NCBI RefSeq assembly: GCF_017348835.2
Contig: NZ_CP071375.1
Source of the DNA: Escherichia coli
GTDB lineage: Bacteria; Pseudomonadota; Gammaproteobacteria; Enterobacterales; Enterobacteriaceae
Strand: one strand, 5' to 3'
Length of the DNA: 64,000 nt
Shown: positions 21,820 through 35,352 of the stretch, piece after piece
Numbering within the stretch: the first letter of the stretch is position 1
Layout of the letters: every line of letters starts with the position of its first letter
Notes under the pieces: model-generated
Databases searched by the model: none
The model's input: only the letters and a program-made list of their open reading frames with translations
Told to the model about the DNA's origin: nothing
Position numbers and translations under genes: made by a program

Positions 21820-22315
21820 CCAAATCCCACGCCAGGGGGATAGACTGGCGGCCTTTCAATTCCGTTGAAACGACGGAATCAAACACCCCGATTCAGGGTA
21901 TTTAAACGTCGCGTTTCACGACATTTATCTAAGTCATTGATTTATATTGTAACTCATAATTGAGTTGCGCCGACCATCCCGCCACAAACGCTCCTACGCA
22001 AAAATTCCCTCACAATTACCCTGCCAATTTTCCAGATTTCACGTATACGCGCCTATATCCCCGCCACCGGATACACGCCCGCTTATACCGGATACTTTTA
22101 TGCCATCATTATTAAATCCATTAATAATCATCAAACCATAATTAGCACAACTTATAATCGAACAAAAAACACACAACATTGATAATGATTTTTTCTGGTT
22201 ATACTTATCTAAAAAAGTGGTATGGGAAGTAACTTATTGTTTTGTAATTACAAATTTATTGCGTGGTCAGATGAACAGACTTGCGCACCTCCCGAAAAAC
22301 ACGCGAAAATCGAAG

Positions 22316-25298: not shown

Positions 25299-26486
25299 TT
25301 ATTGCGCCGCCGCGTACAGGCCGACAATCTGTTCCAGGCTGGCGGTACGCGGGTTGCTGCGCAGACAAATATCTTCCTGCGCGGCCTGCGCCCATGCACC
25401 GTAATGCGCAGATGTCGCGCCAACATCGCCCAGTCGTTTACCAATCCCAACTTCCGCAATCAGCTCACTTACCGCGTTAATAGCGTCACGATCGTCGGAT
25501 TTTTTAGTTCGCAGTGCCCGACCAATCTGACTAAAGCGTTCGCGACATACCATCCGGTTAAACTCCATCACCGTTGGCAGCAACATAGCGTTCGCCAGAC
25601 CGTGCGGAATATGCAGCGCCGCGCCCGGCTGATGCGCCATCGCGTGGCACAACCCAAGACCCGCACTGGAAAACGCCATTCCCGCCATACATGAAGCCAG
25701 CAACATGCTCTCGCGCGCGGCAAGGTCGTGACCGTAGCCCACCGCTTTCGGCAGCGATTTGCCAATCATCGCAATGGCACCAATCGCCAGACTGTCGGTA
25801 AACGGTGTAGCGTTCAGGGCGCTGTATGCTTCAATGGCATGGGTTAACGCATCAATGCCGGTCATCGCCGTGACATGCGACGGCACACCTTCGGTCAATG
25901 CGGCGTCGAGGATCGCCACATCCGGCATCAGCGAGGCATGGGCTAACACCTGCTTGCGCCCGCTCACCGCGTCGATAATCACCGTTACATTGGTGGTTTC
26001 AGAGCCGGTTCCGGCGGTAGTTGGAATGGCAATCAGCGGCAAGCGCGGTTGCAGAACGCTGGTTTCTGACATCTCTGCCAGCGTGCTATCCGGGTTCGTC
26101 ACCAGCAACGCCACGGCTTTCGCCGCATCCAGCACCGAGCCGCCGCCAAATGCGATCACCCCGTCACAACCTGACTCACGCAACTGCGCCACGGCTGCAC
26201 ACACGTCGGTAATGCACGGTTCGCCCACCGGACATGGCCAGAGCGTCATGGCGATACCTTTAACGGCCAGGCTACGCGTCAGCCCGGCGGTCATCCCTGC
26301 CTGATGCAAAAAGCTGTCTGCCATCACGAACAGATGTTTCAGCCCACGCGTTTGCGCTTGCTGTCCGCAACTGCTCACCGAGCCCGGACCGCAAAGCGTC
26401 ACCGGTGGAACGCTAAATGTTTTTACCCGTTGCAGATTCAGGGTATCGAACGCCTGAAAGAGCGCGGTCTGCAATTCATTTTGCAT
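25299..26486 (-). CDS. eutG: Iron-containing alcohol dehydrogenase
   Basis: ORF trimmed to ATG 26484-26486 (MQNELQTALF...); 395 aa. Confidence 0.9.
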   Translation of the reverse strand: MQNELQTALFQAFDTLNLQRVKTFSVPPVTLCGPGSVSSCGQQAQTRGLKHLFVMADSFLHQAGMTAGLTRSLAVKGIAMTLWPCPVGEPCITDVCAAVAQLRESGCDGVIAFGGGSVLDAAKAVALLVTNPDSTLAEMSETSVLQPRLPLIAIPTTAGTGSETTNVTVIIDAVSGRKQVLAHASLMPDVAILDAALTEGVPSHVTAMTGIDALTHAIEAYSALNATPFTDSLAIGAIAMIGKSLPKAVGYGHDLAARESMLLASCMAGMAFSSAGLGLCHAMAHQPGAALHIPHGLANAMLLPTVMEFNRMVCRERFSQIGRALRTKKSDDRDAINAVSELIAEVGIGKRLGDVGATSAHYGAWAQAAQEDICLRSNPRTASLEQIVGLYAAAQ

Positions 26487-32780: not shown

Positions 32781-33027
32781 GAGTCGCCGCCTGTGAAAAA
32801 CTTTCGTGTATCGTGACAATTTTTCGTCAGAGTAAATAACAAAATTCGGCAAGCGCGTTTAAAAGGTGAGGTAGATCACTAAGAATGGAGAGATATTCGC
32901 TGTGGTGCATAAACTTTCATATACAACGCATGAATATAAATAAAATAATATCGAGATATTATATAGACTGCTTTTTTTATTATTCGCAAACTCAGTAATA
33001 AGCTTTACTAATATATTGCAGCCAAAC
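32781..33027 (-). promoter_or_regulatory. eut operon upstream control region (main eut promoter expected here)
   Basis: AT-rich 250-bp non-coding region upstream of eutS; exact promoter and EutR site not resolved. Confidence 0.3.
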
Positions 33028-33055
33028 CGCTTACCCTGAATATTCAGGGTAAGCG
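33028..33055. repeat. Perfect 28-bp palindrome cgcttaccctgaat/attcagggtaagcg just downstream of maeB
   Basis: Read directly from sequence; 18 bp after the maeB stop. Confidence 0.6.
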
Positions 33056-33072
33056 TGAGAGTTAAAAAAGAA

Positions 33073-35352
33073 TTACAGCGGTTGGGTTTGCGCTTCAACC
33101 ACGGCCAGCGCCACCATGTTGACGATACGACGCACCGATGCGATCGGCGTTAACACATGAACCGGTTTCGCCACGCCCATCAGCACCGGACCGACAGTCA
33201 CACCTTCCGAGCTGGAAACGCGCAGTAAGTTGTAACTAATGCGGGCAGCTTCCATGTTCGGCATCACCAGAATATTGGCAGAACCTTTCAAAGGGCTGTC
33301 CGGCATACGGTCGTTGCGAATCGCTTCCACCAGCGCTGCATCGCCGTGCATTTCACCATCAATCATCAGTTCTGGTGCACGTTCCCTGACCAGTTCCAGC
33401 GCCTGACGCATTTTGCTCGACGACGGGCAGTCAGAAGAACCAAAGTTGGAGTGCGACAACAAAGCAACGCGCGGCTCAATACCAAAACGACGGACAGTTT
33501 CTGCCGCCATCAAGGTGATCTCCGCCAGCTCTTCTGCGTCTGGTTCGTCATTGACGTAGGTATCGGCAATAAAGGTGTTACCACTCGGCAGCAGCAGCGC
33601 GTTCATTGCACCTGCGGTGTGAACGCCATCGTGATAACCAAAGACATTTTTCACCACGCTAAAATGTTCATGATAATCACCCACCGTACCGCAAATCATT
33701 GCATCGGCTTCGCCACGCTGAACCATGATCGCGCCGATCACTGTCGGGTTACTGATCAGCGCCCGCTGCGCCTGTTCCTGAGTGACGCCGCGACGCTTCA
33801 TGATCTGGAAGTATTCGGTCCAGTACTCTTTAAAGCGCGGATCGGATTCGTTATTGACGATCTCAAAATCAACGCCCGCTTTGATCTGCAAGCCCAGTTT
33901 CTGAATGCGCATTTCGATCACGTTCGGACGACCGATAAGGATCGGTTTCGCCAGTCCCAGCGTTACCAGTTCCTGAGTGGCATGCAGAACGCGCGCCTCT
34001 TCCCCTTCCGGCAGAACTACGCGCTTCGGCGCTTTGCGAGCCTGGGAGAAAATCGGCTTCATAAACAGGTTGGTTTTGTAAACGAACTCAGTCAGCTTGT
34101 CGATGTAGACGTCGAAATCAGCAATCGGACGCGTCGCCACGCCCGACTCCATCGCCGCTTTCGCGACCGCAGGAGCGATCTTAACGATCAAGCGCGGATC
34201 AAACGGTTTTGGAATGATGTATTCCGGACCAAAGCTCAGATCCTGATCGCCATACGCTGAAGCCACCACTTCGCTCTGTTCCGCATGGGCCAGTTCTGCA
34301 ATCGCGCGTACCGCCGCCAGTTTCATCTCTTCGTTGATGGCGGTTGCGCCAACGTCCAGCGCGCCACGGAAGATAAACGGGAAGCACAGGACGTTGTTCA
34401 CCTGGTTCGGGTAGTCGGAACGGCCGGTACAGATGATGGCATCCGGACGCACTTCTTTCGCCAGCGGCGGCAGAATTTCCGGTTCCGGGTTCGCCAGCGC
34501 CAGGATCATTGGTGCCCGAGCCATTTTCTTCACCATTTCCTGGGTCAGCACTTTCGGGCCGGAACAGCCGAGGAAAATATCCGCACCTTCAATCACATCA
34601 TCGAGGGTACGTTTGCCGTCATCCACCACCGCATATGCGGCTTTGGTTTCCGCCATGTTTGGCTCACGGCCCTGATAGATAACGCCTTTTGAATCGCAAA
34701 CCACGATGTTATGTTTTTGCAGACCCAACGCTACCAGCAGGTTCATACAGGCGATTGCTGCAGCACCCGCGCCGGAAACCACCATACGCACGTCAGAGAT
34801 GTTTTTCTCCACCACGCGCAAGCCGTTGAGGATGGCGGCAGTGCTGATGATTGCCGTGCCGTGCTGATCGTCGTGGAATACCGGAATATTCATCCGCTCG
34901 CGCAGTTTCTGTTCAATATAGAAACATTCTGGCGCTTTAATGTCTTCGAGGTTGATTCCGCCGAAGGTCGGTTCGAGCGCAGCGACGACTTCAATAAATT
35001 TGTCCGGGTCGAGTTCATCAACTTCAATGTCAAATACATCAATTCCGGCGAATTTCTTAAACAGAACGCCCTTGCCTTCCATCACCGGTTTGCCCGCCAG
35101 CGCGCCAATGTTGCCTAACCCCAGCACCGCCGTACCGTTAGAGATCACCGCCACCAGGTTACCGCGCGCGGTATATTTGTAGGCTTTTAACGGGTCTTTT
35201 TCGATTTCAAGACAAGGTGCGGCAACGCCTGGTGAGTAGGCCAGCGCCAGATCGCGCTGCGTTGCCAGAGGCTTGGTTGGAGAAACCTGGATTTTCCCTG
35301 GAACTGGAAATTCATGGAAATCAAGTGCACTTTGTTTTAACTGGTCATCCAT
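33073..35352 (-). CDS. maeB: NADP-dependent malic enzyme
   Basis: 759-aa ORF. Confidence 0.94.

Follow-up and report, generated by a model that had tools for sequence, protein, structure and literature searches.

Between maeB and the eut operon of Escherichia coli there is a perfect palindrome of 28 bp, and the question which this locus raises is whether the palindrome acts as DNA, i.e., as the binding site of a protein, or as RNA, i.e., as a hairpin at the end of the maeB transcript. A preliminary description of the locus had suggested that it may be a protein-binding dyad or an insulator rather than a simple terminator.

A palindrome in the maeB–eutS spacer

The window (the whole stretch of 64,000 nucleotides that was analyzed) carries at positions 33028-33055 the sequence CGCTTACCCTGAAT/ATTCAGGGTAAGCG, two arms of 14 nt each which are 100% complementary and separated by 0 nt. 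No palindrome in the 64-kb window is longer, and it is the only spacerless one with arms of more than 8 nt; three spacerless palindromes have 8-nt arms. With uniform base frequencies the chance expectation for palindromes with 14-nt arms is about 64000 x 4^-14 = 2e-4. The palindrome lies inside the 292-nt spacer between maeB and eutS, 247 nt upstream of eutS. The preliminary description had therefore correctly recognized a perfect inverted repeat without spacer, located downstream of maeB and upstream of eutS, but its distance of 18 bp from the maeB stop codon has to be corrected to 17 nt (33056-33072). The features of the locus, together with the basis of each assignment, are as follows:

33028..33055, minus strand: palindrome, proposed 3′-terminal hairpin in the maeB transcript (sequence, symmetry, fold; K-12 equivalent 2576054-2576081)
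33044..33055, minus strand: 5′ arm of the predicted RNA stem, CGCUUACCCUGA in maeB sense (fold)
33040..33043, minus strand: predicted loop AUAU, the center of the palindrome (fold)
33028..33039, minus strand: 3′ arm of the predicted RNA stem, UCAGGGUAAGCG (fold)
33019..33027, minus strand: U-poor tail GUUUGGCUG, with the probable maeB mRNA 3′ end at about 33020-33022 (homology to the K-12 termini)
33056..33072, minus strand: T-rich 17-nt spacer UUCUUUUUUAACUCUCA from the maeB stop codon to the hairpin (sequence)
33073..35352, minus strand: maeB coding sequence, 759 amino acids, whose transcript probably ends at the hairpin (list of open reading frames; RefSeq annotation of matching E. coli records)
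32780, minus strand: start of eutS (translation of the open reading frame)

The half-site 10-mer ATTCAGGGTA is found twice more in the window, at 21891-21900 and 26436-26445, each time preceded by a G, where about 0.12 occurrences are expected. At neither place does the match extend further or form a palindrome, and these copies are probably due to chance.

For the maeB-sense RNA a hairpin with a 12-bp stem and an AUAU loop of 4 nt is predicted, the fold having −22 kcal/mol when computed over 66 nt (z = −5.4); because the palindrome is perfect, the window sequence folds equally well on both strands. A stable stem–loop shortly after the stop codon of the last gene, here 17 nt past maeB, is a feature of intrinsic terminators. 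The U-tract of 7-8 nt which is the other feature of such terminators is absent. The palindrome is followed by GUUUGGCUG in the maeB sense and by UGAGAGUUA in the antisense direction, and the 8-nt tail GUUUGGCU contains four U, three of them consecutive. A terminator scan, which needs at least five T in 8 nt, reports no site at the palindrome, and the tail score of −2.8 is close to the background of the window (−2.06 ± 0.59), being reached by 12% of random window positions. Thus there is indeed no strong U-run on either strand, as the preliminary description had noted, and the element is not a textbook intrinsic terminator. A search with the covariance models of Rfam 15 gave no match at the gathering score; the sole overlapping match, to the family rli38, scored 25.9 bits (E = 0.76) where the gathering score is 49, and was treated as chance.

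The 3′ end of the maeB transcript and the tail of the hairpin

That the maeB transcript of K-12 ends at this hairpin is already known from published tables. For the minus strand of K-12 MG1655 the tables of Bar et al. (2023, Nat Commun, PMC10687069) contain a maeB 3′ terminus classed as "Primary", with a peak at 2576046-2576054/5. In their RNAtag-seq data from LB the dominant position is 2576046, which has a signal of 1.0, ranks 34th among all tested positions and reaches an adjusted p = 0 in three libraries; in two further datasets the dominant position is 2576048 with signals of 0.967 and 0.989, whereby the signal approaches 0 at full readthrough. The same table gives the same hairpin fold with −19.5 kcal/mol and a 3′ UTR of 53 nt, the longest U-run being one of 3, and it contains no further terminus between 2576000 and 2576039. 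We calibrated these coordinates on the thrC terminator, for which the printed fold sequence ends at the terminus; the legend of the table (−40 to +10 nt around the terminus) is contradicted by thrC, and the coordinates were used instead. With the K-12 palindrome at 2576054-2576081 the mapped 3′ end is located 6-8 nt beyond the 28-mer and, counted from the last base pair formed in K-12, at 7-9 nt, the latter being the distance at which intrinsic terminators form their 3′ ends (about 7-9 nt). The supplementary files of Adams et al. (2021) contain neither a maeB entry nor a coordinate in the range 257602x-257606x, and the supplements of the TERMITe paper contain no maeB entry.

Two bases distinguish the K-12 element from that of the window, one at the end of the stem and one in the tail. 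Transferred by homology the K-12 termini correspond to window positions 33020-33022, and by this sequence comparison the K-12 3′ end should apply to the window strain too. The proposal of a dyad or insulator instead of a terminator is not supported: the published 3′ end maps at the hairpin in three datasets, the first of the two observations by which the preliminary description would have its proposal refuted. A role at the RNA level, as the hairpin that forms the 3′ end of maeB, is well supported. It has to be kept in mind that steady-state 3′ ends look the same whether they arise by termination or by processing: the end found here, right after a stable stem–loop without a U-rich tail, is also a feature of protective stem–loops.

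We moderately favor the explanation that the hairpin is a leaky, hairpin-dependent, U-poor terminator which in addition protects the 3′ end of the mRNA. The palindrome would then act as RNA and not as a DNA dyad, the maeB-sense transcript folding into the 12-bp stem and 4-nt loop; the hairpin would set the 3′ end of the maeB mRNA about 50 nt past the stop codon and would keep maeB transcription apart from the promoter of the downstream eut operon. Any readthrough transcript would end at a point beyond the hairpin and then be shortened as far as the hairpin by 3′–5′ exonucleases, against which the hairpin would at the same time shield the mRNA. Because the hairpin occupies the slot of canonical terminators from which it appears to descend, because three U's stay near the stem, and because the stem is very stable, the release of RNA polymerase presumably takes place at the hairpin and not at a later point. 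Such an arrangement would explain why the constitutively expressed maeB does not read into the EutR-controlled eut operon. The result also defines where the maeB transcription unit ends; beyond annotation it adds little.

Since the tail is near background, a stop at the hairpin and a stop further downstream followed by trimming both have to be considered. In the second case the hairpin would be protective only: RNA polymerase would pass it, Rho or another factor would stop transcription downstream, and PNPase and RNase II would trim the transcript back. We regard this as possible but unlikely. PNPase and RNase II stall 6-10 nt from a stem, and the mapped 3′ end has this distance. Furthermore the tail varies between E. 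coli strains while the stem is conserved: GTTTGG (window), GTTTAG (K-12), GTTTTC and GTCCAG are found, with scores from −2.0 to −3.2 (as RNA the natural tails, including those of the sister species, read GUUUGG, GUUUAG, GUUUUC, GUCCAG, GUUUUAUU and AUUUUUAU). The tail GUCCAG stands behind an intact hairpin in one sampled strain, and here a pure exonuclease barrier fits better than a terminator. A precedent for this pattern has been described by Dar and Sorek (2018, PMC6061677), who found that Rho-dependent transcripts of E. coli end directly downstream of stable, U-poor stem–loops and who proposed that terminators can switch class simply through the loss of uridines. The maeB hairpin resembles these trimmed Rho-dependent ends in its stable stem–loop, in the precise 3′ end just downstream and in its low uridine content, and it fits the "transition state" between terminator classes of these authors (PMC6061677). 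It differs from them in that three U's stay near the stem and in that the downstream sequence is poor in C. In the first 60-120 nt past the hairpin there is 9-10% C against 16-20% G, which makes the 120 nt downstream a poor loading site for Rho; an excess of C over G is confined to the stretch from about +60 to +180 nt, and a rut-like sequence with C over G directly downstream of the stem–loop is not seen, whereby the C-over-G enrichment of Rho-dependent transcripts is a statistical tendency and no strict requirement. The position of the hairpin, suggestive of descent from canonical intrinsic terminators, speaks against a protective-only role as well.

The stem among Escherichia genomes

When a 351-bp region of this locus was compared with the 5426 complete E. 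coli genomes, 5422 of them contained it, at a median of one place each. As a proxy for the perfect form we used a 74-nt query, for which a second BLAST place on the reverse strand arises only from the self-match of the perfect 28-mer; by this estimate about 75% of the complete E. coli genomes carry the perfect 28-mer. K-12-type records give one BLAST place with the same query and contain a 26-bp palindrome. In K-12 and in E. coli B the last base of the 3′ arm is changed from G to A, which opens the terminal pair only. Among the sampled E. coli strains the stem is almost invariant, and the tail and the flanks vary.

We also considered whether the palindrome belongs to a dispersed repeat. It shares with REP/BIME elements that it is an intergenic, imperfect-to-perfect palindrome at the 3′ end of a gene and a potential mRNA stabilizer, and its 9-mer GGGTAAGCG is also present in a REP-like element downstream of maeB in Enterobacter (L043, L044). 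Being found in single copy in about 5400 genomes and not in many copies, at this locus only and without the REP consensus, the E. coli element was rejected as a REP or other dispersed repeat.

Some strains are rearranged at this site. In E. coli M160133 two genes of the glycosyltransferase family are inserted on the opposite strand 9 nt after the hairpin, converging on maeB (L086, 1021-3007); the last of these coding sequences ends 2 nt from the hairpin, which therefore stands between convergent genes in this strain. Of two further strains (L087/L089, 2248-2945) one has an IS1 inside the 3′ arm of the palindrome (GGGTAAG followed at the junction by GGTGATGCTGCC...), and in the other an IS1-associated deletion has removed the hairpin, eutS and part of eutP.

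To see on which strand and in which molecule the stem acts, the substitutions in the stem are informative. When 11 Escherichia sequences are aligned, pairing is seen in 98.5% of the stem cells. The 5′ arm is nearly invariant, its sole changes being C to U, which give U·G wobbles. All four internal stem substitutions are transitions; they result in G·U in the maeB-sense RNA, where antisense RNA and DNA dyad would both have A·C. Where the folds of the two strands differ, the sense RNA is the more stable one (−16.3 vs −7.5, −19.6 vs −15.6 and −16.9 vs −12.8 kcal/mol for sense and antisense, respectively). A fifth substitution, the terminal G to A of K-12 and E. coli B, goes the other way and concerns the outermost pair only. 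This asymmetry of four events against one is suggestive of a role of the maeB-sense RNA but not decisive. Double compensatory changes do not occur among the 11 Escherichia sequences, and covariation was dismissed as a proof of RNA structure, as one-sided wobbles prove nothing alone. The identity of the element as a DNA dyad, on which the preliminary description had built, is not borne out by these natural variants, which break the symmetry and yet keep the pairing of the maeB-sense RNA.

It could still be argued that the perfect dyad is the DNA site of a dimeric regulator or of a nucleoid protein which insulates or regulates the eut promoter or maeB. The perfect 28-bp symmetry, its AT-rich center and its occurrence in most complete E. 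coli genomes would agree with such a site, and a genomic-SELEX peak of the RpoS holoenzyme has been reported in the spacer between eutS and maeB (eutS<-<maeB; older K-12 coordinate 2574144, intensity 11.3; PMC5493296), although this peak is of such low resolution that its position with respect to the hairpin is not defined. The regulator of the eut operon itself, EutR, has its footprint just upstream of the −35 element of eut P1, in an element which is conserved across genomes (PMC5821096). This element most probably is the cross-genus conserved block next to eutS, more than 130 nt away from the palindrome; the footprint is thus far from the dyad. The conserved eut block is also present in genera without the palindrome, and in genera with the same EutR-controlled promoter block an unrelated GC hairpin is found in the slot. 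Moreover the symmetry is not conserved beyond E. coli, substitutions in the sister species break the dyad and keep the RNA pairing, and K-12 and E. coli B carry asymmetric variants. Beyond the symmetry and a low-resolution SELEX peak nothing was found that speaks for the protein-binding reading, which is not supported; we judge it very improbable, and this candidate regulatory dyad can be struck from the list.

The palindrome sequence itself gave no match in a full-text search of one library of papers. Its inverted TGAAT and ATTCA half-sites resemble the ARG box, with the consensus wnTGAATwwwwATTCAnw. The differences are a spacer of 0 nt instead of 4 nt, the lack of a tandem second box and the loss of the symmetry in the sister species. 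In an informal comparison with the consensus sequences, the half-site spacing does not fit the operators of the ARG box, Cra and LexA, and these candidates were rejected.

The same slot in related genera and sister species

For a wider comparison we collected 80 loci with close relatives of MaeB, one per species, and inspected the DNA past the stop codon. At all 25 related loci which are linked to eutS a stable hairpin is present shortly past the maeB stop codon, and in 23 of the 25 this distance is 17-20 nt. The best-scoring hairpin starts 14-20 nt past the stop codon at 24 of the 25 loci; the exceptions to the 17-20 nt rule are Yokenella (L015) and Salmonella diarizonae (L037), in the latter of which the scan chose a larger fold and the terminator stem, as judged by eye, lies about 17 nt past the stop codon. 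In Citrobacter, Klebsiella, Pseudocitrobacter and Salmonella the hairpin has the sequence GGCGCGGG-loop-CCCGCGCC, mostly followed by TTTTTAT, with tail scores of −5.3 to −5.6, and is a textbook intrinsic terminator. Thus conservation across the Enterobacteriaceae, which the preliminary description had named as a check, turns out against the dyad reading: a canonical terminator and not the palindrome fills the slot in the related genera.

The hairpin of Escherichia shares with these terminators the slot 17-20 nt past the stop codon, a similar T/A-rich spacer before it, the position upstream of the conserved eut promoter block and a similar stability (−20 kcal/mol in E. coli, −15 to −17 kcal/mol in the other genera). 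On the other hand the Escherichia stem CGCTTACCC...GGGTAAGCG is unrelated in sequence to the stem of the other genera, and with 4 T in 8 nt and a score of −2.8 the E. coli tail is poorer in T than the tails of the other genera, which have 6-7 T and scores of about −5.5. Escherichia also differs by an extra AT-rich block of about 130 nt after the hairpin.

The sister lineages of E. coli have the same stem with other centers and tails. In Escherichia sp. MOD1-EC7003 (L002) the center is TGGATTATTCG and the tail GTTTTATT with a score of −3.4, and in E. whittamii (L004) the center is TGAGTAATTCG and the tail ATTTTTAT with a score of −3.7. Both centers are non-palindromic, with one extra base each and loops of 3 and 5 nt; from the E. 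coli center TGAATATTCA they are separated by one indel and a few substitutions. The tails of these sister species are richer in T, with 6 T in 8 nt, so that the U-tract of an intrinsic terminator is present there. Across the relatives which share the eut promoter a dyad symmetry at the DNA level is therefore not found. A stem that is kept in a sister lineage while the center of the dyad is not is what one expects of an RNA hairpin and not of an operator.

From this comparison one can tentatively sketch a terminator caught in transition, a scenario that we put forward with reserve: the ancestral canonical maeB terminator may have been replaced in Escherichia by an unrelated hairpin; in E. coli the stem of this hairpin may then have been lengthened to a perfect palindrome, and with the loss of the U-tract the formation of the 3′ end may have shifted from intrinsic termination to factor-dependent termination and trimming. 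The locus is a small but clean natural example of the replacement of a terminator hairpin and of U-tract decay between sister species. As an addition to this scenario, the symmetry might be kept in those strains that have the perfect form (about 75%) by protein binding or by a cruciform which shields eut P1, but this is less likely.

The perfection of the palindrome could also be without a function of its own, an imperfect terminator hairpin having been perfected by template switching (quasi-palindrome correction) in the E. coli lineage and drifting otherwise. In agreement with this, E. coli and the sister species differ in the hairpin at the center only, the tail is decaying, and IS1 and an accessory gene island have inserted at or next to the hairpin in strains which are still viable. 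Drift is difficult to reconcile with a stem which is nearly invariant in the strains sampled from the roughly 5400 genomes while its flanks vary, and from the mapped 3′ end with its high signal it is evident that the hairpin is in use. As a complete account we consider it improbable; template switching accounts for the symmetry and not for the existence of the hairpin, and to this extent it is compatible with the U-poor terminator that we prefer. The perfect symmetry may simply reflect a longer stem, which possibly arose by quasi-palindrome correction.

The spacer between maeB and eutS has a length of 236-292 nt in Escherichia against 153-160 nt at most Citrobacter and Klebsiella loci and in Yokenella and Pseudocitrobacter. 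The extra AT-rich block mentioned above (window about 32896-33027, minus strand) lies between the hairpin and the conserved eut promoter block, as seen in comparison with L008, L017, L023, L050 and others. At a group of Enterobacter-like loci (L032, L035, L039, L053, L056-L060, L064, L078, L079) there is no eut operon, and the 3′ flanks of maeB contain GC-rich CCCTCTCCC...GGGAGAGGG repeats or REP-like palindromes and no simple terminator. The distance between maeB and eutS reaches about 2.1 kb in Salmonella enterica subsp. diarizonae (L037, 3163-5270), compared with about 160 nt in the other genera. At the Klebsiella pneumoniae locus (L052, 3183-3270) two hairpins follow maeB in tandem, the first, CGCGCGGATCCGTTTCCGCGCG, without a T-run and the second ending in CCTTTTTAAT.
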